A stretch of DNA of 64,000 nt, from NCBI GenBank assembly GCA_902778535.1, contig CACYYG010000003.1, forward strand, positions 13,345 to 77,344, given 5' to 3'. The DNA is from an uncultured Prevotellaceae bacterium. Its GTDB lineage: Bacteria; Bacteroidota; Bacteroidia; Bacteroidales; Bacteroidaceae. The first letter of the stretch is position 1. Every line of letters starts with the position of its first letter. The notes beneath the pieces are model-generated. The model had not been told where the DNA came from, searched no databases, and was given only the letters and a program-made list of their open reading frames with translations. A program made the translations under genes and the position numbers. Shown piece after piece: positions 1 to 10,297 of this stretch.

Positions 1-3000
1 ACCACAAGTGTCAGTAGGGTGGTGTCATCGAAGTCATATTCCTTTATCTTGGAGAACTTTCCACTGCTCAGGAACTTGAAGAATCCGATTGGCTCAACAT
101 AATTTTCGGGATCTTCCCATTCCGACAGTACATTCTTTCTGATTCTGCTTGTCTTAATTGCATCTTCTTTCGATGTTACAAGAGGGGCATTTACAGCAAC
201 AATTTCTTGATTGGGGATAGGAATGGCCTCCTGGACTTCTTCAACAACAGGAACAGCTTGCAGTTTACGGCTTACTCTCTGGTACTCATTGAACTGTATT
301 TCGTTGAGTCTTCTCTTCGTGCCTGCCTTGCGGACATACCACTCATTCTTGTAAGGCAGTCCCGATTGTATAGGTAGGATTTCTAAAATTAGGACATCCT
401 TATCCGTGTTATCTTCATCGAAGCAGATTCTCTTTATGTATGTTGTGGCAATACTGTTATCCCATTCCAGAGCGACCGCATCGACTATCGACCTAACATA
501 TTTTTCTTTATCGCCGTAATAAAGCGACGTATTCAAGTCATCTTCCACGCCTATACCATATCCGAAGTTGTTTACTCCAATGTAAAGTGTACCACCTCTG
601 GTGTTGAAGAAAGAATCAATCACCTTCAGTATCTCATCTTTTTGCTTCTCTGGATTGGGTAGACCACTATTATCATCAGCTGCAAACACGAAACTTGTTT
701 TGTACTCCGTTTCCTCAGTCTCTTCTCCTGTGCCATAGAGCTTCAACCCTGTCTCATATCCCTTCAGATTCAGTAATTGGATTATTTTGTTGTGGATATT
801 TGTGGCACTGCTTTCCAATCTGTTTGCCTTGGTGATATTATATGCCAAAACAAGGGATGCCAGGTTTTTCAATGACATATTTGTATTAGCGAGAGTTACT
901 AAATCCATGTTATGCTCTTCCCTGCCAATGAAGCTGACTGTTTGGAGTTGCATGAATCTATCCCTCAATACTACATTATTACTGAAAAGCTCAGCATTAG
1001 CATTTGCGAGTTGTGTCAGTTTATCTTCATCAACCTTTGAATTCTGGGCGAAATCATGGAGCATGGTTATGATATCCATCCTGCCCTTATAGTAAGCTGC
1101 CTGAGATTCCCAACCAATCAAAAGGCATAGGAGTCTTGCAAAGCCTAGATAATTGTATGACTTGACGTACTCCGAATCTATCAGGGCCATCCTGTCAATC
1201 ATGTAGATAACTTCTCTTACATACGATTCATCGATCAGTTTATCGCTCTCCAATATCTGATCTTCCTCCTCCTCCGAAATTTTCTCTGGTATTTTGCCGA
1301 CACTGGCATCTTCCATGAGATTTTTGAAAGCAGTGTTCAGGTCAAAATCAAACGATGTGAAATCCACGATGTCACAGGATATATGGAATGTGCCAGAACC
1401 TGAGCCTTTCAGTCTGCATCGGACTATACTGTTCTTGCCTATTCCTTCAAAATCACCTGCATTTCTGATACTTACGCTGACACCTTCTTTTGTGATCGCA
1501 GGAGCGTTTCCATACATGTTCGGAGTGTTACCTACAGAACAAATGATATCTTCATCATCTGAATAATAGTCGTTGCCAAAATAGTTCTTCAAATCATCGA
1601 GCATGGAGAAATGGAACAGATCATCTTCCACGTCGATAATCTGTGCTTGGAAAACGTAACGGCTACCGTCTGAGGCATAGAAGTGGCGGAGTGAAGTAGT
1701 AATGGAGTACCCTACGATGTCGTTTATATAGATGAAACCATTGCCACCAATCTCGTCCTCTATCTGACAGTAGTATTTACTCCTGTCATCAATATCTTGC
1801 CCGGTAAAGGTAATCTTTACAGTATCATCTAATCGGTGCTGCTTTTTGTTTTTCTTTGCAACAACCAAAGGTTTCTTGTTACTATTGAAGAATTCTGATT
1901 CTATCTCTTGCCAAACGGACTGGTATGGGCTTATATCATTAGACTTGACGGACGATAAACTCGTTTCAGTCTTTGTAGGTAAGAATACCTGTAGGTTTTT
2001 CCATAGCCCCAAATCACTTGGAAACACAGGACGGAGGCTCTCTTTATCACCTGCTGTTTGCAGATGAATTCCATTACCTGAGATAACAAGTCTTCCGTTG
2101 CCCTGGGAGAAGGAGTTTATCGTGTCTATGTTAGCACAAGGAGAACTGTAGATGTAATGGGGCAGCATCTTCACTGCATCTAGCGAATACACTGGAAGCT
2201 TTGCAGACGAATGGAATAAGTTATAATATGCCGCGTTAACATGTTTTTCAGAACTAGATGGATAAAGGTAAGATGACAGCACGCACAATCTTGCGGCGTT
2301 AAGCCGATAATCTGCAACACCAGACATATTTGAATCCTTGATGAGTAGCAGTTGGATAGCCAATGCCAACATATTGGTGTCAATTAACGCCTGGTTATCT
2401 TTGGTTTTGTCAATCCTACCGTCACATTCTCTTATATAGAGTTCAAGCAATTTTATCAAAGCACTGCTAAATGGCTCTCTTTCCCATATTTTGATGTCTT
2501 TGTTGCTGATGATGTCTAACAGCTCTTTTATCCGACTGTTCATCAGGTCTGGCCTGCGTAGGAATAGGGCAGATAGAATATTAAAGTTCTTTGTTGGATG
2601 ATAAACAAAACCAGATACCTTTAGTTTATTGAAAATGTTGTCGATAAATTGAGTAGGTGTATCTTGTTCCGTCGTTTCATTTCCGATAAGTTCAGCAGCC
2701 CTTATGTAATAGCCGATTTGCTCAATGAGGGAAGTAAGCCTCTCTTGATAGAAGTCCCTTTCATTATAGCTGCAAATATTTAGAAGATCAGACAGCTCTA
2801 ATAAGTCAGAGCAATCTCGTCTTACTGTTTGTAAATCCATTTTTTTGTTTAATAAGCTTTGGATCCATCGATGGCATTGGGATTCATAGGATTTTTCTTT
2901 TTCTTCGGTAAGTAATAACTTAACAAACTCTTTTGTATTCCAAGATATTTCTCTGGATTCAAGTAATTCGGTTAGTTTGCCTTCAGTCAGGTTGTCATTG

Positions 3001-3245
3001 CTTTGCTCAAACTCGCTTATGTCTACAAGTTCAATTTTAGGATGCTTTTCGCTAACTGCTAACACCCGACATTTCACTGTTTGTCCCTTAAACAGTATAA
3101 GTTTTGCCGTACCTTGGAGATATGACGTTATTCCTGTTTTCTCATCGATTAATTCACAATAGTTATTGAACAGTGATTTTACTTTGTAATCAATTATGTC
3201 ACCTATTTTATAGGCTTGGCGTGGGGTTTGTTTCTCTTGCTCCAT
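1..3245 (-). CDS. Large (>1080 aa, 3'-truncated by the window edge) protein with S1/OB-like domains and an AlbA_2 (Schlafen-like) domain
   Basis: Manual translation of the minus strand gives one open frame from ATG 3245 (alternative ATG 3293) to position 1; it is absent from the ORF track because its stop lies outside the window. N-terminus YKIGDIIDYKVKSL...GQTVKCRVLAV is S1-like; ~725-320 reads ETEYKTSFVF...ILKVIDSFFNTRGGTLYIGVNNFGYGIGV, the AlbA_2 signature. Confidence 0.85.
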   Translation of the reverse strand, partial: MEQEKQTPRQAYKIGDIIDYKVKSLFNNYCELIDEKTGITSYLQGTAKLILFKGQTVKCRVLAVSEKHPKIELVDISEFEQSNDNLTEGKLTELLESREISWNTKEFVKLLLTEEKEKSYESQCHRWIQSLLNKKMDLQTVRRDCSDLLELSDLLNICSYNERDFYQERLTSLIEQIGYYIRAAELIGNETTEQDTPTQFIDNIFNKLKVSGFVYHPTKNFNILSALFLRRPDLMNSRIKELLDIISNKDIKIWEREPFSSALIKLLELYIRECDGRIDKTKDNQALIDTNMLALAIQLLLIKDSNMSGVADYRLNAARLCVLSSYLYPSSSEKHVNAAYYNLFHSSAKLPVYSLDAVKMLPHYIYSSPCANIDTINSFSQGNGRLVISGNGIHLQTAGDKESLRPVFPSDLGLWKNLQVFLPTKTETSLSSVKSNDISPYQSVWQEIESEFFNSNKKPLVVAKKNKKQHRLDDTVKITFTGQDIDDRSKYYCQIEDEIGGNGFIYINDIVGYSITTSLRHFYASDGSRYVFQAQIIDVEDDLFHFSMLDDLKNYFGNDYYSDDEDIICSVGNTPNMYGNAPAITKEGVSVSIRNAGDFEGIGKNSIVRCRLKGSGSGTFHISCDIVDFTSFDFDLNTAFKNLMEDASVGKIPEKISEEEEDQILESDKLIDESYVREVIYMIDRMALIDSEYVKSYNYLGFARLLCLLIGWESQAAYYKGRMDIITMLHDFAQNSKVDEDKLTQLANANAELFSNNVVLRDRFMQLQTVSFIGREEHNMDLVTLANTNMSLKNLASLVLAYNITKANRLESSATNIHNKIIQLLNLKGYETGLKLYGTGEETEETEYKTSFVFAADDNSGLPNPEKQKDEILKVIDSFFNTRGGTLYIGVNNFGYGIGVEDDLNTSLYYGDKEKYVRSIVDAVALEWDNSIATTYIKRICFDEDNTDKDVLILEILPIQSGLPYKNEWYVRKAGTKRRLNEIQFNEYQRVSRKLQAVPVVEEVQEAIPIPNQEIVAVNAPLVTSKEDAIKTSRIRKNVLSEWEDPENYVEPIGFFKFLSSGKFSKIKEYDFDDTTLLTLV

Positions 3246-3349
3246 AGGGTTTAGCTCATTTTTCTGGTTTATTGTTTGATAAGATATTACCATCAATATA
3301 CAATTATTCTTTATCACTCAGAATCAAAGGTTCATCAATGGATATTAAG

Positions 3350-3724: not shown

Positions 3725-4696
3725 ATGGAAAAAGCTTGTTTTACGAATATAAGTAGTGAGATAATTTCATTACTTAATAATGCAAAAAGTGAGGTATTGG
3801 TTGCAATGGCATGGTTTACCAGTGCAGAATTATTTGAAGCATTACAATCCTGTATAAGTAGAAAAGTACATGTTGAACTCATTCTGTTAGATAGTCCAAC
3901 AAACTTTATGTATTATGCTCCTGATTTCAATAGACTTCTAACTCCTCATAGCTGTTTAAGAATAGCAAAGCAAGATGTTGGAATTATGCATCATAAATTT
4001 TGTATAATAGACAGCAAGTTGGTAATTACAGGCTCATATAATTGGACATACAGAGCAGAAACCTATAATATCGAAAACGTGTTAATTACAGATGTTTCTT
4101 CCATAGTTTATTCTTATAGACAAGAATTTGACCAGTTGGCTTCAAACATTGAAATTTCAACTTATAGTCCTAGATTAACTTGGAATGAGATTCAACAACG
4201 GGATGATGTGGATGTTCGTGAGATTAATTATGAGATAAAACATATTTGCAAAACTCGAAATCTTCCAGTCATGAATGTTATCAAAGCGAGCACTGTTGTG
4301 CAGGTTGTAGAAACAAAACGTATACCGTATGCAAATAGGTATATTGGTATAGAAGTTATTGATAACAACAAGAATTATTTTGATTCGTTTATTGAACCCA
4401 GGGAGCAGCTTCCAATCAAAACTAAAACTCACAATTTATATTTTGACAGCATGAATGAGACTGTGTTTCCCTGTACATTCATCTGTGGAACTACAAACAA
4501 CAGGGATTCAGCTCAACTTATCAAGGAAGTCAATTTGATTGACCTAACAAAGGGAATTTCAGATCTAAATCTATTGATTCAATTTTCTATGTCGCTAGAT
4601 GTAAATGGAAGTTTACGAATTGACATTACTTGTCCGGCTACTGGCAAAAAAATGATGATAAGTGATATCAACTCTAATTATGTAAAATATGAGTAA
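3725..4696 (+). CDS. Phospholipase D-family (single HKD, Nuc-like) protein fused to a C-terminal Hsp70 substrate-binding-domain-like region
   Basis: HHKFCIID...TGSYNWT HKD motif at ~3989-4050. C-terminus IGIEV...IEPREQLPIK...FSMSLDVNGSLRIDITCPATGKKMMI aligns by eye with DnaK LGIET...IAKNTTIPTK...[26 protein letters not shown]. Confidence 0.8.
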   Translation: MEKACFTNISSEIISLLNNAKSEVLVAMAWFTSAELFEALQSCISRKVHVELILLDSPTNFMYYAPDFNRLLTPHSCLRIAKQDVGIMHHKFCIIDSKLVITGSYNWTYRAETYNIENVLITDVSSIVYSYRQEFDQLASNIEISTYSPRLTWNEIQQRDDVDVREINYEIKHICKTRNLPVMNVIKASTVVQVVETKRIPYANRYIGIEVIDNNKNYFDSFIEPREQLPIKTKTHNLYFDSMNETVFPCTFICGTTNNRDSAQLIKEVNLIDLTKGISDLNLLIQFSMSLDVNGSLRIDITCPATGKKMMISDINSNYVKYE

Positions 4697-7334
4697 AGTA
4701 GTTAGCAAATACAGGTCTATTGTTAGGGAAATAAATAGAGCATTCTATCTATTTCAAGAGCTTTCAAATGATGAATTGAGACATGAGATGATTATGATAG
4801 AGCAGGCTGTCGAGCAAAGTAATTATAAAGCAGACTGCTTAGAGGAAAATCTCGTAAAAGTGTTTGCTATCGTAAAAGAAACTGCAAGACGCTTTTCAGA
4901 AGGGAATATTATCGTTTTAGCAAATGACTACGACAAGTACCTTTCAGAGACGTATGATTTTGTTGTTATAGAAAACGACAAGGCAATATATAAAAACAGG
5001 TGGGATGCTGGCGGAGTACCATTTGAGTGGAACATGGTACACTATGATGAACAGCTATTGGGTGGTATATTACTTCACAATGGTTATGCGGTTGAAATGC
5101 TGACGGGAGAGGGGAAAACTCTTGTCGCCACCCTACCTGTTATGTTGAATGCTCTTACGCATGATGGAGTGCACATGATGACCGTGAATAGCTATTTGTC
5201 AAAGCGAGATTTTGAACTCACACGTCCTTTGTATATGTTCTATGGGCTTACGGCAGACTGTATTGAGTATTATCCTAATGGAAGCGTTAGGCGCAAGAAA
5301 GCCTACAAAGCAGATATTACGTTTGGAACTAATTCTTCATTTACTTTTGATTATTTGTATGATCACCTTGCTATGGACCCTTCAGAATGTGTTCAACAGA
5401 AACACACATTCGCAATCATCGATGAGTTGGATTCAATACTGATTGATGATGCAGGAACTCCACATGTCATAGGCGGTGGCAACTATTATAATCATGGCAA
5501 ATATTATGAGGAGAATCTTCCAATAATAAAAGAACTTTTGGAATCAGGGAACGCTCTTTCTCTCTACGAATCGGATTCTTTGCATAAAAAGGCTGAATTC
5601 ACAAAGGATGGAAAGGCATGGCTTGCTGCAAAAAAACAGATTCCGGATTTATTTGCTGTTGAGAAAACCTATGAAATTGATGATTTTGACGAGCTTATTC
5701 CAACAGAAAAGAATGAATTATTAGAAAAAATGTTCATTCAAAATGTCCTTTATCAGTTGCTCGTTGCTTTTACAGTTTATGAGAAGGATATAGACTATGT
5801 CGTAGATAATGGTAAGATTAAAATAATTGACCAAAATACAGGGCGCATTAAAGAAAGTAACAGGTGGGAACATGGATTGCATTCTGCCATAGAAGTGAAG
5901 GAAGGGGTTAAGGTTCAGGATGATTTTGACGGTATGGCCGTCATATCGTTAAAGAACTATTTCAAGCTATATCACAAAGTCGCAGGTATGTCAGGAACGA
6001 TCATGGCTGTGAAAGACGAGTTGGAAGATGTCTATGGCTTGAAGTGTGAATCATTACCCACCCACAAACCTCTTATCCGCTTAGACATGCCATTACGGGT
6101 TTATAGGACAGAGGAACAAAAAGAAAAAGCTATTATTGATCTCATCATAGAAAACAAGAAAAATGGTCGGCCAACATTGTTAGGATGCATCAACATAAAA
6201 CGTTGTGAAAATATTGCTTGTCTGCTTGAAGTACAAAATATACCATTCAATCGTTTAGATGCTAAAACCATCAAAGGAGAAGCAGTCACCATTGCAAAAG
6301 CCGGAATCGGGAATACTATTACAGTAGCTACAAGCGTTGCAGGACGTGGAACCGACATCAAGCCATCGCAAGATGCGCTCGACAATGGTGGACTGATGGT
6401 CATTGGTACCGATTTGTTTGACTCAGTCAGAATAGACAATCAGTTGAAAGGAAGGACGGGAAGACAAGGCAATCCTGGCTCTTCCGTGTTTTTTGCATCT
6501 TTAGAAGATTCTATACTACAATACCTTAGCAAAGAAGATCAAATCCAATTAGAAATGATTTTTAATAACAAACAGGCCAACGAACTCAATGATACTCAGG
6601 TCTTGTCTTTCTTCGCAAAAGCCCAGTCTAACAGAGAGTCCTTGTCATATCAAAGTAGAGTAAGCACGGCGCGAAAGGATGATGTTGTTGCTCCACGCAG
6701 GTTGAGATTCTATAGCCAGCGTAATGAATTGCTCTTTAATCCAAATAGTGCTATTACGTTAGTTGAACAAATTGCCAAAGCCAACAACGTTCCCATTGAA
6801 ACTATAGACAAACATTTGAACGAATTATACCAGACCACCAAAGAATTACTTAATAGAAGTCTTAGAAATAATCCATACGCTTTACGAGCCTTAGTGGCTT
6901 TCTCTAACAACAGACATTCATTTGCCATCCATTTAAATATTCATTCTGTTATTAATAGTTGTGTTGACTTTGAGACAGAGTTTAAGAGGCAAGTATTACT
7001 GCAAGTCTCAGATAAGGAATGGAAAAAATTTGTCATCTATATGATGGGGGATTTGGATAACCATGAAATCGATTTGCTAGATGAAAGATATGAGAAGATG
7101 ATGGATAAAATAAAAGCCATTGTCCTTAGTAGGCTTACAAATTCCACAATCATTTTCGATGAAAAAAAGCAAGAAGATTACATTTATAGAAAAGAGGAAC
7201 CTTCTTCCGAGCCAGTAAAATCTCATAACACCATTGCCCCCGATGATCCCTGCCCATGTGGCAGCCAAAAAAAATACCGTGAATGTCATGGTCGAGGCAT
7301 TCACGGCACTCCTATGAAGAGACGTAGACGTTAG
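4689..7334 (+). CDS. secA: Divergent SecA paralogue (881 aa) with C-terminal SEC-C motif
   Basis: MVHYDEQLLGG, MLTGEGKT, IIDELDSILIDDA, YFKLYHKVAGMSGT, VATSVAGRGTDIK, DNQLKGRTGRQG and PCPCGSQKKYRECHG. Start overlaps the PLD gene by 8 nt. Confidence 0.9.
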   Translation: MSKVVSKYRSIVREINRAFYLFQELSNDELRHEMIMIEQAVEQSNYKADCLEENLVKVFAIVKETARRFSEGNIIVLANDYDKYLSETYDFVVIENDKAIYKNRWDAGGVPFEWNMVHYDEQLLGGILLHNGYAVEMLTGEGKTLVATLPVMLNALTHDGVHMMTVNSYLSKRDFELTRPLYMFYGLTADCIEYYPNGSVRRKKAYKADITFGTNSSFTFDYLYDHLAMDPSECVQQKHTFAIIDELDSILIDDAGTPHVIGGGNYYNHGKYYEENLPIIKELLESGNALSLYESDSLHKKAEFTKDGKAWLAAKKQIPDLFAVEKTYEIDDFDELIPTEKNELLEKMFIQNVLYQLLVAFTVYEKDIDYVVDNGKIKIIDQNTGRIKESNRWEHGLHSAIEVKEGVKVQDDFDGMAVISLKNYFKLYHKVAGMSGTIMAVKDELEDVYGLKCESLPTHKPLIRLDMPLRVYRTEEQKEKAIIDLIIENKKNGRPTLLGCINIKRCENIACLLEVQNIPFNRLDAKTIKGEAVTIAKAGIGNTITVATSVAGRGTDIKPSQDALDNGGLMVIGTDLFDSVRIDNQLKGRTGRQGNPGSSVFFASLEDSILQYLSKEDQIQLEMIFNNKQANELNDTQVLSFFAKAQSNRESLSYQSRVSTARKDDVVAPRRLRFYSQRNELLFNPNSAITLVEQIAKANNVPIETIDKHLNELYQTTKELLNRSLRNNPYALRALVAFSNNRHSFAIHLNIHSVINSCVDFETEFKRQVLLQVSDKEWKKFVIYMMGDLDNHEIDLLDERYEKMMDKIKAIVLSRLTNSTIIFDEKKQEDYIYRKEEPSSEPVKSHNTIAPDDPCPCGSQKKYRECHGRGIHGTPMKRRRR

Positions 7335-9802
7335 TTTTCCTTTACGAAAGGAACCAAGAAATCGTTGATATACAAGAAGAAAGAAATTGATCTGTCGGGA
7401 TTTTTAACAGCCAGCATTGGATTACAGGTATTTATGGACTCATCTGCGGCCTTTTTGGCTATAAGTTCCATTGATGCAGGTGTATATGTACCAGCTTTTT
7501 CTGTCGAATATGTATAGTCGCCTATATAGTCAATAATACCCTTTGAAGTTCTGAAAGCATCCTCTAATAGAGGCTTTGCGTTAATAGCATCTATCATGTG
7601 CGTAACCATAATAAGTTGGCCATCCCTGCTATAGCTTCCAAGTAAATATCCTATTGGCCCGTCAGTAATGTCATCCATATCTTCTCCGTCAAATATTGTT
7701 TCTGAACTAATAGCCATTCGAATGCCATAACCATCGAGTTTATAAGTTTCTAAACGATCAGCAACCACGCCTCTATTATCATGTGACCATATTGTGCTAT
7801 GTAGGTGCTCTCCTTGTCCTATTTTAATATTTAATTCACGTACAAAGAGATTTACAAGCGAAGCTATGTCACTATTTGTAGCGAGGAAAGTTGGTGAATA
7901 GCAGCCGCTCCCTTCAAGATAGAAGTTCTTGGTATCTTGTTCTATACGTGATAAGTACGCTTTACGTAACTCAAAAGGATTACCGTCTTTTGAAGAAATA
8001 CATAATAGATTTGATGAATGGTTTGTAATACATAAACTGACGATATCCGTTTCGGGAACGGCATAGCTAATGAAATGAAGCATTTCGTTACTTCCTGTGC
8101 AATCAATTATCAAATCGTAATCCTTTATCTGTTTTATGCTATCCTCTTGGTTACAGTAATTGATATTTCCATAGAAGGAGCCGCCTTCATAAGTGTAGTC
8201 ATTGACATTGTCATGTTGATGCCAGTAACCATTATCTTTGATTTCCTTTGTTTTTATAAATGGGTTTATTGAGAGTAGTCTTTTTTTAAGAGCATCAACC
8301 TTACTTGTCCCCAAATCAGATAGTAGATATATGCTTCTGCAAATATTCCCAGGTTCTACAATGTCACTATCCCATAGTCCCATAATAGTAACTCCACTTC
8401 TTGCTAATGATTCGGCAATCATGGAACCCAATGCCCCAAGACCAACTAGTGCAATTCTCTTGTTTTGGAGTTGTTGCGAAAATAATCCTCTGCCAAAGAA
8501 CAAATTGTTATCAATAATCTGTGGGAGTTGAAGCTGCAATGGGAAAGATATAGGTTTTCTCAGGTTTATGTCCCTCAAATTCAGATTAAAAGACATTTCA
8601 TCGTATTGACCTGCTTGTCTGTTTGTATAGCATAAAAGCCAAGTGGTTTTTTCTGAATCTCTTATGCCCAATGCAAAACAGTGGTATTCATAAGGGTAAA
8701 CATATATGGCATAGTCCTCCTCAGCTTGTCTTGCATATTCTTCTTCCAACTCTTCTTCTGTCATTTCGTCAAGGTCTTTGGCTGGTCCGGAAAGTGAAGC
8801 GAAAGGTCTATAACCGTTATATTTCTTTATTTCTTCTTCAAGTCTAACAAGACATTCGTTTAGCAGTGTCTTTTGTTGAGGCAACACCTTTGTTTGGACA
8901 TAATCAGGATTTTTATTTATACGTGCTGGGAGGTATGACTCTTCTTTTGCCAGTTCTTCCTTTATCCCAGTTAAGATAATGTTAGCTTCTTCAAAAGAAT
9001 AGTTGTTAAAACTGATTCTATAAGAGCCACCTTCAGCCCATGACTTGCTTAGATTAAAACCATGTAATAAATGCTCACACGTTTTCTCATCCCAGTCATA
9101 CTGATTCTTAAGGAGTATAAAATCTCTATAAGTATCAATATTCTTGGGGGCTTCATCAACTATTATATATGGTAACTCATAATTTGCCAATTCTTTGTTT
9201 TGGAGAGCATAAAAACGTTTATCTGGTGTCTTGATGCAATGGATAGTACCCATTTTTTCTTTAAAATAATCCATGTCATTGGAGAAATCTCCAACAAAAG
9301 TCAAAATAGCATCACCATGATATTCACTTAACTCATCACTGTTCTCCCAACTATAAGCACTCTCGAAAGCTAGTGCATTTCTTACGTTTTCGTCTTCGAT
9401 AACAGCTTCTAAGTCTGGCCGCATTTGACGACCTATCCATTCTTTAAGACGGAGAACTTCTATCTCTAATTGGTTCTCGGCGGTTTCAGCAAAGGGTGTA
9501 TTCAAGCAAAACCATCCACCATATTTCTCAGCCTTTGGATCCTTTCTCGGATTGTAAATCAAATGAGGATACCCAAACAGTGATTTAGTTCGAAACATCA
9601 ACTTCTGATGTGGAAAGGACATTGGGATTTCCACTCTCAGTTCAAGTGGGTGAATTGTATTGAGAACTTCAATACGACCCACATAACATTTTTTTTCTTC
9701 CTTGTCTTCTGATTCCTTGAATTCCTCAATGACACTAAAGCCTGGATGATTCTGGAAGAATGAAGTGTAGAAAGAAGCGTCTTTATACTCGAACATAGCC
9801 AT
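7331..9802 (-). CDS. E2-like + ThiF/E1 + degenerate JAB fusion (823 aa), Cap2-like conjugating enzyme
   Basis: N-terminal E2-like YPHL...WFCLN (C99); ThiF motifs VGLGALGS and DSDIVEPGNICRS; E1 catalytic-type GSGCYSPTF (C634); C-terminal GYLLG...YIGDYTYST...NPMLAV is JAB/MPN-like but lacks HxH. Confidence 0.85.
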   Translation of the reverse strand: MAMFEYKDASFYTSFFQNHPGFSVIEEFKESEDKEEKKCYVGRIEVLNTIHPLELRVEIPMSFPHQKLMFRTKSLFGYPHLIYNPRKDPKAEKYGGWFCLNTPFAETAENQLEIEVLRLKEWIGRQMRPDLEAVIEDENVRNALAFESAYSWENSDELSEYHGDAILTFVGDFSNDMDYFKEKMGTIHCIKTPDKRFYALQNKELANYELPYIIVDEAPKNIDTYRDFILLKNQYDWDEKTCEHLLHGFNLSKSWAEGGSYRISFNNYSFEEANIILTGIKEELAKEESYLPARINKNPDYVQTKVLPQQKTLLNECLVRLEEEIKKYNGYRPFASLSGPAKDLDEMTEEELEEEYARQAEEDYAIYVYPYEYHCFALGIRDSEKTTWLLCYTNRQAGQYDEMSFNLNLRDINLRKPISFPLQLQLPQIIDNNLFFGRGLFSQQLQNKRIALVGLGALGSMIAESLARSGVTIMGLWDSDIVEPGNICRSIYLLSDLGTSKVDALKKRLLSINPFIKTKEIKDNGYWHQHDNVNDYTYEGGSFYGNINYCNQEDSIKQIKDYDLIIDCTGSNEMLHFISYAVPETDIVSLCITNHSSNLLCISSKDGNPFELRKAYLSRIEQDTKNFYLEGSGCYSPTFLATNSDIASLVNLFVRELNIKIGQGEHLHSTIWSHDNRGVVADRLETYKLDGYGIRMAISSETIFDGEDMDDITDGPIGYLLGSYSRDGQLIMVTHMIDAINAKPLLEDAFRTSKGIIDYIGDYTYSTEKAGTYTPASMELIAKKAADESINTCNPMLAVKNPDRSISFFLYINDFLVPFVKEN

Positions 9803-9808
9803 CTCTAT

Positions 9809-9946
9809 TTATGCGTGACCTCTTGGAGAAGGTGTTGAGGTCGGTGGATTCTGTGTTGATACTCTCGCCTCAGGTTCTTTACGAGTAGTTCTGAGGACAG
9901 TCCGATTTGACGGGCCAATACCATTGTATGAAGGATTGTTATTCAT
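9809..9946 (-). CDS. Unannotated 45-aa low-complexity peptide MNNNPSYNGIGPSNRTVLRTTRKEPEARVSTQNPPTSTPSPRGHA, candidate E1 substrate/modifier
   Basis: ATG 9946 to TAA 9809; the stop is 6 nt before the E2-E1 ATG; a -7 box lies just upstream. Below the ORF-track size cut-off. Confidence 0.7.
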   Translation of the reverse strand: MNNNPSYNGIGPSNRTVLRTTRKEPEARVSTQNPPTSTPSPRGHA

Positions 9947-9976
9947 AAGTAATATTCATTTGATTATATGATTTTG

Positions 9977-9984
9977 CAAAAGTA
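9977..9984 (-). promoter_or_regulatory. -7 box (TACTTTTG) of the peptide/E2-E1-JAB operon
   Basis: Perfect TAnnTTTG on the minus strand ~30 bp upstream of ATG 9946. Confidence 0.65.
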
Positions 9985-10192
9985 CAAAAAAAGAGGGAAT
10001 TACTTGTCAATTAAGATATAAAAAAGAATAAAATGGCGTTTTGAGTATGTAATTATGGCAAAATGAATATTTTTTTCCAGATACGTATTAAACTAACATG
10101 TCAGTAAACAGTTGTTACATGTTAGAAGGGGGAAAAGAGTCAGTCTGTGTGTAAGCTTCTTTTGACAGTTTTTTTATTCATTATTTCAAACC

Positions 10193-10297
10193 AAACTCTT
10201 GATTTAAGCCGTTTACGACTTCCTCGGTCGTAAAAGTGTTAAATCAAGAGTTTGTGCCTCTGAAATTCTTTTCCCCATCATAATTGCCTTTACTTTG
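10193..10297 (+). promoter_or_regulatory. tra operon promoter: nested inverted repeat (10193-10253) containing the motif TCGTAAAAGTGTTAAATCA (10228-10246), plus -7 box TTACTTTG (10290-10297)
   Basis: 15-bp perfect outer arms AAACTCTTGATTTAA/TTAAATCAAGAGTTT and 8-bp inner arms TTTACGAC/GTCGTAAA; the same motif recurs at 28125 and 52886. Confidence 0.7.

Follow-up and report, generated by a model that had tools for sequence, protein, structure and literature searches.

What does the short open reading frame (ORF) encode that lies directly in front of an E2-E1 fusion enzyme in a 64,000-nucleotide stretch of DNA from an uncultured Prevotellaceae bacterium (contig CACYYG010000003.1; the whole stretch is hereafter called the window), and is it, as an earlier sequence-only reading proposed, a Pup-like modifier in a minimal, tail-only conjugation pathway? 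The part of that proposal that stands is a conserved peptide partner of a Cap2-type E2-E1 enzyme; the minimal pathway and the tail-only substrate do not. We regard it as probable, though well short of assured, that the peptide is the substrate of the adjacent enzyme, in the position that ubiquitin takes, and that its tail is a portable handle that tethers or primes a nuclease effector, a reading drawn from the comparison of sequences. Two architectures are distinguished. In type A, to which the window belongs, the peptide is a free gene product accompanied by the E2-E1 enzyme, a SecA-like ATPase and a phospholipase D (PLD)-family nuclease, while in type B the same tail ends a nuclease of another family.

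The ORF opens with an ATG at 9946-9944 and closes with a TAA at 9811-9809 on the minus strand, and its product is MNNNPSYNGIGPSNRTVLRTTRKEPEARVSTQNPPTSTPSPRGHA; an in-frame stop three codons 5' of the ATG makes a longer form impossible. Six bases (ATAGAG) separate its stop from the ATG (9802) of the 823-amino-acid E2-E1 ORF. The peptide is rich in Pro (seven), Asn and Thr (six each) and Ser and Arg (five each), has a single Lys and eight hydrophobic residues out of 45, and ends in Gly-His-Ala. Everything that the sequence-only reading described, the -7 box upstream included, is borne out by the letters. A TAnnTTTG box is found at comparable spacing before the peptide ATG in L001, L004, L005, L007, L008, L010 and L011, and 20-35 nucleotides (nt) 5' of it in most of the related loci described below. 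The label 'unannotated' also holds, as the exact peptide is absent among the called proteins of a collection of 5.8 billion proteins, where the 57 related clusters are every one unnamed.

Whether the ORF is a gene can be judged from related loci, 11 of which were collected from species genomes and 80 from metagenomes, with enzymes 37-100% identical to that of the window. The check suggested along with the sequence-only reading, a search for short ORFs upstream of enzyme homologues and for conservation of their C-termini, was run on these loci. Of these, 85 have a full-length start of the enzyme and 200 nt or more of upstream sequence, and in every one of the 85 an ORF ending in [RK][GA][HY]A-stop precedes the E2-E1 gene; the distance from its stop to the start of the enzyme lies between -2 and +14 nt in 82 of them. 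The last eight codons occur in 46 distinct versions, among which the terminal Ala is invariant while GCA, GCC, GCT and GCG are all used, and the Pro, Arg and Gly of the tail are likewise unchanged despite codon variation. The median pairwise ratio of nonsynonymous to synonymous divergence (dN/dS) is 0.18 for the whole peptide gene; by region (mean dN over mean dS), it rises from 0.15 in the tail to 0.29 over the N-terminal dozen codons and 0.37 in the mid-region. By this comparison, the ORF is a real gene, far above chance expectation. It is short, of low complexity and uncalled in this genome, as would suit a chance ORF, a regulatory upstream ORF or an RNA element that yields no functional protein, but we give practically no credence to this view, given the conservation at the amino acid level with synonymous turnover. 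The RNA itself argues in the same direction: between 9700 and 10300, Rfam matches were obtained at noise level only, and the fold is no better than that of shuffled sequences (z = -0.30).

How is the peptide built? The 85 loci hold 51 distinct peptides, mostly 39-75 amino acids long, with an N-terminal motif a few residues past the Met and a C-terminal module, separated by a polar spacer whose length varies widely. The N-terminal motif is present in nearly all 51 peptides, with P5, S6 and G9 invariant in the peptide alignment, and missing from the fused tails of type B. With NPSYNG as a second conserved motif, the peptide is not tail-only, contrary to what had been claimed. The tail follows the consensus [VI][ST]T[QN]..P..TPS[PS][RK][GA][HY]A-COOH, its last residues reading P-[SA]-[PSG]-[RK]-[GA]-[HY]-Ala-stop: the final Ala never varies, it is preceded by either His or Tyr, and either Arg or Lys occupies position -4. 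Judged from these sequences, the exact C-terminus is the most constrained part of the peptide. Such a layout, in which an elastic linker connects two conserved ends, points to a bivalent adaptor more than to a folded domain. The earlier statement that the peptide lacks a beta-grasp fold is supported too: the 39-75-residue chains are of low complexity, bear indels in mid-sequence and find no match in Pfam, NCBIfam or PADLOC, and the composition of the window's peptide and the variable spacer would fit a small disordered modifier.

One peptide variant stands apart. At about 560-890 of L084, a product of around 110 amino acids starts with a transmembrane (TM) helix, continues with a PSYRG motif and ends in ...PSGRGYA; by its sequence, it would be a membrane-anchored tail carrier.

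A link with CRISPR was considered and rejected. The tail and N-motif profile matched ORFs running through CRISPR-like arrays (repeated LNPSFNGIWSRT) and satellite-like repeats, which we read as chance combined with summed repeat scores. The representative-library matches P0297, P0303 and P0305 are spurious ORFs of this kind, laid across CRISPR-like arrays with repeated LNPSFNGIWSRT or FNPSYRGIGFWR units that resemble the N-terminal motif of the peptide. Since no repeat array adjoins the peptide gene in L102 and no CRISPR direct-repeat match occurs in the window, the resemblance was treated as chance.

Is the adjacent enzyme equipped to act on such a peptide? It matches the PADLOC E1-E2 model PDLC00827 (2.4e-70), Pfam ThiF (3.4e-20) and the E1 domain of E. 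cloacae Cap2 in the PDB (7tsq; 7e-15), and in the latter match its EGSGCYSPTF segment aligns with EGIGAWHPVF of Cap2, the C548A site. Its AlphaFold2 (AF2) model (predicted local distance difference test score, pLDDT, of 84) has full-length Cap2 as top fold match (7to3_A; E = 3.5e-17). Cys99, within YPH...WFCLN, and Cys634 are invariant in 58 type A sequences as well as in a set of 14 sequences that includes type B. The same 58 sequences share an invariant adenylation site (G454, G456, G459, D478, R489, K501 and D567), and this remains so with type B added. The loop around Cys634 is predicted to be flexible in the AF2 model, like E1 crossover loops. On sequence and model, the enzyme is a Cap2-type E2-linker-E1 that is competent on paper, in agreement with the sequence-only reading, which had singled out both catalytic cysteines. 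Against the NCBIfam 6A-MBL cap2_3 model, it scores 84.9 bits over the E1 part only, with the cut-off at 320. The C-terminal domain (residues 672-823) aligns with Cap3/Prok-JAB at an hhalign probability of 57-66%, with Tyr-x-Tyr in place of the HxH metal site; it has no sequence match in Pfam or the PDB, and a search of the whole genome with PF14464 came back empty. With moderate confidence, the domain is probably JAB-like and likely inactive. A split of the enzyme into E2-E1 and JAB parts in L009 was dismissed as an artefact of a 10-N gap.

Three observations point to the tail as the substrate of the E1 domain: constraint peaks at the extreme C-terminus, the enzyme gene always has the tail gene directly 5' of it, and the ending resembles the E. 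cloacae CdnD tail KPAEPQKTGRFA and the tail of a Bacteroidota CD-NTase (cGAS/DncV-like nucleotidyltransferase) from an antiphage signalling system based on cyclic oligonucleotides (CBASS), which ends in ...NERFG. The constrained Ala, His/Tyr and Arg/Lys form the pattern expected from an enzyme that acts on a C-terminal carboxylate. The resemblance to CBASS tails that the sequence-only reading had noticed is found in the His/aromatic-Ala ending, as in ...GRFA of CdnD, a tail that was captured as its AMP conjugate in the E1 site of Cap2 (bioRxiv 10.1101/2022.03.31.486616). We infer that the terminal Ala45 is first adenylated at its carboxylate by the ThiF/E1 domain, that the acyl group then moves to E1 Cys634 and on to E2 Cys99, and that it is finally ligated onto an amine of a target. 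A Lys modified in this way would keep a tryptic remnant of Gly-His-Ala (+265.117 Da).

Is the tail bound to the free peptide? In type B, known from nine loci and about 50 protein clusters, it is the C-terminus of a DUF559/Vsr-like PD-(D/E)xK nuclease; in L009, for instance, ...TPSSRGYA ends a 526-amino-acid protein. The nucleases of this family comprise 346-585 amino acids around the DUF559/Vsr-like core, and the long forms carry an N-terminal TM helix and a coiled coil. The roughly 50 clusters end in ...[IV][ST]TQ.KPK.TPSSRGYA, and remoter homologues of the nuclease core are without the tail. In all nine loci, an E2-E1 gene, whose product is 37-41% identical to that of the window, and then a SecA-like gene come directly after the nuclease gene on its strand. 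The PLD gene and the free peptide, present in each of the 52 type A loci whose downstream flank spans 3.7 kb or more, occur in none of the nine. Among 1.84 billion representative proteins, only such peptides and type B nucleases match the profile of the tails, besides the repeat artefacts. Being common to both, the tail appears as a portable module that goes with this enzyme family. The complementarity of the two types suggests, at the level of sequence, that the peptide of the window is a detached version of the tail handle.

These nucleases also bear on a quite different use of the peptide, as the precursor of a ribosomally synthesised and post-translationally modified peptide (RiPP), whose C-terminus the ThiF domain would modify as MccB does with MccA, yielding a peptidyl-nucleotide or other small product. 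The relatives of the E1 domain in sequence and structure include MccB and PaaA. There, a short ribosomal peptide encoded alongside is adenylated at its C-terminus by a ThiF-type enzyme, as is proposed here, where the short peptide is encoded ahead of the enzyme. MccA-type precursors, however, end in Asn, which their chemistry requires, whereas the terminal Ala is invariant here. MccB-type chemistry, which leads to an antibiotic, has no E2 domain and no transfer to proteins, and would leave the invariant E2 Cys and the Cap2 architecture without a role. Moreover, the same tail sits on nucleases of 346-585 amino acids, and the module is conserved without an exporter or immunity gene. On the strength of the invariant Ala, the E2 cysteine and the large tailed nucleases, the MccA-type reading was rejected as very remote.

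Is the pathway minimal? The SecA-like and PLD genes accompany the peptide and the enzyme in all 52 of the above type A loci, and with such constant partners the module is not the minimal two-gene pathway that had been envisaged. In the usual type A order, the enzyme gene converges on the SecA-like gene, which is preceded by the PLD gene, with 3' ends that mostly nearly abut or overlap (by 4 nt in the window); L094 is the single type A locus with all four genes colinear. The SecA-like protein is a SecA paralogue with the full domain set and an Arg-rich C-terminal extension (...MKRRRR), which scores below every NCBIfam SecA cut-off. The PLD protein matches Pfam PLDc_2 (1e-25) and gives an AF2 model with a pLDDT of 81. 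Foldseek matches its N-terminal half to Zucchini, NucT and Nuc at 1e-10, and its whole chain to the substrate-binding domain (SBD) of DnaK (4ezp_B; 1.4e-6 over 121 columns) as well as to further DnaK, BiP and Hsp70 chains; residues 207-315 show weak sequence matches to Hsp70 SBDs. From the model, the C-terminal half appears to adopt the Hsp70/DnaK SBD fold. Among 401 genomes of the order, the full-length PLD-SBD fusion was found in that of the window only. PADLOC 2.0 has no model for the partner proteins beyond weak SEC-C matches. Across both architectures, the constant parts by sequence are the tail, the E2-E1 enzyme, the SecA-like protein and a nuclease.

In the mechanism that we favour, the last ~20 residues ([VI][ST]TQ..P..TPSPRG[HY]A) would be a portable conjugation handle, carried at the C-terminus of the PD-(D/E)xK nuclease in type B and split off as a free peptide in type A. 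The Hsp70-type peptide-binding domain of the PLD protein may then grip the N-terminal NPSYNG motif and so re-attach the peptide non-covalently. Either way, the outcome would be an E1-E2-driven covalent tethering or priming of a nuclease effector, in which the SecA-like ATPase would take part, with the putative purpose of defending the host or its mobile element against invading DNA.

A more elaborate form of this idea, which we put forward tentatively and with considerable doubt, is a tag-and-recruit immunity. The E1-E2 enzyme would ligate the Ala of the peptide to invader or sentinel proteins, the Hsp70-type domain of the PLD protein would read NPSYNG, and the SecA-derived motor would engage the tagged polypeptide and bring the nuclease to the target so marked, the operons with a fused nuclease-tail being the one-piece version. 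If true, E1/E2 conjugation would here have its first modifier without a beta-grasp fold, and chaperone and translocase parts (Hsp70 SBD, SecA) would for the first time be seen reused as readers of a protein tag.

The partner genes could also belong to a separate system. The peptide would then be a free, disordered tag that the enzyme attaches to phage or host proteins, as the sequence-only reading proposed, and that interferes directly, as in Bil. Peptide and enzyme do form a bicistronic unit of their own with its own -7 box, and the PLD and SecA-like genes lie on the opposite strand. Direct interference reportedly has a precedent in the ubiquitin-like (Ubl) protein of Bil (bioRxiv 10.1101/2023.09.04.556158). 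Nonetheless, the strict linkage of the four genes, the colinear order in L094 and the SecA-like gene that follows the enzyme in type B as well, where the tail sits on the nuclease, make independent neighbours unlikely, and we judge this explanation accordingly.

The company of the SecA-like protein invites another question, namely whether the tail is a C-terminal recognition or export signal for this motor, with the enzyme acting on something else. The SecA-like protein accompanies the tail in both architectures and retains its preprotein cross-linking domain, and some tail-bearing proteins start with a TM helix. Yet the tail gene always lies directly 5' of the E2-E1 gene and not of the SecA-like gene, and it is the very last residue that is most constrained, in an ending like that of a known Cap2 substrate. 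SecA family proteins, by contrast, are known to recognise N-terminal signal peptides, not a C-terminal Ala. We thus hold a signal for the motor to be quite improbable.

Slightly easier to entertain, although still improbable, is a peptide that is never transferred. As a pseudo-substrate or regulator, it would occupy the E1 site, the domain of the PLD protein or both, silencing them like an antitoxin until infection removes it. A short, labile-looking product encoded first in the operon would suit this role, as would the peptide-binding domain of the nuclease and the lack of an isopeptidase to recycle conjugates. An inhibitor-only role, however, would need neither the two catalytic cysteines nor the entire adenylation site, all of which are invariant over 37-100% identity, and in type B the tail is fused to the effector, which suits a substrate more than it does an inhibitor.

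Several points weigh against the substrate reading that we prefer. The tail is accompanied as strictly by the SecA-like protein as by the E2-E1 enzyme, and co-occurrence alone cannot tell which of the two reads the tail. The link between the PLD domain and the N-terminal motif rests on one type A/type B split, effectively a single event and not 52. No target and no E3 are evident, and the JAB assignment has moderate support, given the hhalign range and the missing sequence matches. Should the substrate reading be right nonetheless, the stand-alone tail would be the smallest and only non-beta-grasp E1-E2 substrate, a counterpart of Pup on ubiquitin-type chemistry. Cap2-type conjugation would be tied directly to nuclease effectors instead of second-messenger synthesis. 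The module would be an apparently uncharacterised one with two architectures in mobile elements of gut and rumen Bacteroidales, reusing SecA and Hsp70 SBD parts.

Which known system does the module resemble? Cap2, an E2-E1 fusion, reportedly acts on the C-terminal tail of the CD-NTase (Ledvina et al. 2023; Jenson et al. 2023). The enzyme of the window shares with Cap2 of type II CBASS, its best match in sequence and fold, the E2-linker-E1 layout and both catalytic Cys, and the two systems have in common a substrate tail, putative and by its composition likely disordered in the present case, with a small last residue after an aromatic residue or His (...GRFA in CdnD, ...RGHA or ...RGYA here) and a setting in mobile or defence loci. 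Unlike CBASS, the module has no cyclic-nucleotide effector, and no CD-NTase or other nucleotidyltransferase was found in it, the conserved neighbours being only the SecA-like and PLD proteins or a PD-(D/E)xK nuclease. Its putative substrate is a free peptide of 39-75 amino acids or, in the sister type, a nuclease; the enzyme carries, as a fusion, a JAB-like domain without the metal-binding motif; and the module has a SecA-like ATPase and a nuclease as obligate partners. In the absence of a CD-NTase and of an active Cap3, the system is not CBASS, although the enzyme has the structure of the Cap2 family. By its sequences, it most likely works like the conjugation of CD-NTases by Cap2.

So far, Cap2-type enzymes are known for their action on tails of folded signalling enzymes, namely CD-NTases and, more recently, TIR proteins. 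In Thoeris operons with Cap2 and Cap3, it is the TIR protein that carries the tail (bioRxiv 10.64898/2025.12.03.692087). Such tails are thus portable beyond CD-NTases, as on the type B nucleases, but in Thoeris it is a folded signalling enzyme that bears the tail, with Gly as its last residue, and the operons include an active Cap3, whereas here the tail may be a separate gene product. Bil, Bub and 6A-MBL share E1/E2 chemistry in bacterial defence or defence-like operons, and 6A-MBL likewise has a fused E2-E1-JAB ('cap2_3'), yet their modifiers are beta-grasp Ubl proteins. The comparison with Pup of actinobacteria in the sequence-only reading is sound only as an analogy: Pup is a small, disordered, encoded tag with two functional ends, one ligated and the other read by a machine, its N-terminus engaging the Mpa ATPase. 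The chemistry and the enzymes differ. In Pup, the side chain of a C-terminal Glu is ligated by the glutamine-synthetase-like PafA after deamidation by Dop, without E1, E2 or thioesters; here, PafA, Dop and a proteasome are lacking, the ends read RG[HY]A instead of GGQ/GGE, and there is no sequence relation.

Table 1. Features of the module in the window and of the type B tail nucleases in related loci.
Feature	Position	Strand	Remarks
PLD-family nuclease with Hsp70/DnaK SBD-like beta domain	3725..4696	+	HKD at residue 89 (from 3989)
Hsp70/DnaK SBD-like beta domain of the PLD protein (apparent)	4322-4693	+	~residues 200-323
SecA-like ATPase, 881 amino acids	4689..7334	+	Pfam: DEAD motor, preprotein cross-linking domain, wing/scaffold, SEC-C knuckle; Arg-rich end
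Cap2-type enzyme, 823 amino acids (P0002)	7331..9802	-	PADLOC, Pfam, PDB and AF2 fold match
E2 domain	9802-9413	-	Cys99 codon 9508-9506
Linker of the E2-E1 enzyme	9412-8513	-	
ThiF/E1 domain	8512-7790	-	GLGALGS 8443-8423; Cys634 codon 7903-7901
C-terminal domain of the enzyme, probably JAB-like	7789-7334	-	Residues 672-823
Peptide gene	9809..9946	-	45 codons and TAA; disordered, low-complexity product predicted; read by translation
C-terminal tail module, VSTQNPPTSTPSPRGHA	9812..9862	-	Residues 29-45; common to peptides and type B nuclease C-termini
N-terminal motif, NPSYNGIG	9914..9937	-	Residues 4-11; family consensus [NKDT]-P-S-x-x-G
Bacteroidetes-type -7 box, TACTTTTG	9977..9984	-	Fits TAnnTTTG; ~30 nt 5' of the peptide ATG; putative promoter
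Type B tail nucleases	L009:2408-3988; L020:7001-8098; L021:600-2324		Also in L092, L096-L098, L100 and L101

Where does the module occur? The family is rare, with one occurrence among 401 sampled Bacteroidota genomes, and appears largely restricted to Bacteroidales-like contigs from gut, rumen and bioreactors. Relatives of the peptide were not found in IMG/VR, nor were relatives of the E2-E1 enzyme in PLSDB. In loci of the P0014 type, a type III-A csm operon and an integrase flank the module, and AlbA_2 and restriction-modification genes adjoin it. A relaxase and integrases adjoin it in L020, and tra genes of a conjugative transposon (CTn) in both the window and Phocaeicola barnesiae (L005), whose strain DSM 18169 carries the module. 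From this association with defence islands and mobile elements, we infer a role of the module in defence. The suspicion that the pathway is undescribed is in line with a full-text literature search, most subscription-journal papers being outside its coverage, which returned no description of the module; the four-gene set of peptide, E2-E1, SecA-like protein and nuclease is apparently undescribed.

A few further observations concern the surroundings. A widespread variant (its protein is listed in 268 index blocks of the collection, and 24 contigs were read) is represented by L102, where the four-gene module at 4783-9200 and its flanks form part of a defence island; its neighbours are a type III-A csm operon with Cas6b, an AlbA_2/HATPase_c_4 gene, an Eco57I-like methylase-nuclease and an integrase. 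Between the putative peptide promoter and the divergent tra operon of the window lies a strong palindrome (10181-10272), to which several miRNA-type Rfam models match spuriously; it probably serves the CTn backbone as an operator or terminator. On the other side of the module, a frame of more than 1100 amino acids at 3-3317 on the minus strand, open at the window edge, encodes a Schlafen/AlbA_2 domain, and AlbA_2 genes also lie near the module in L102-L104 and L009.

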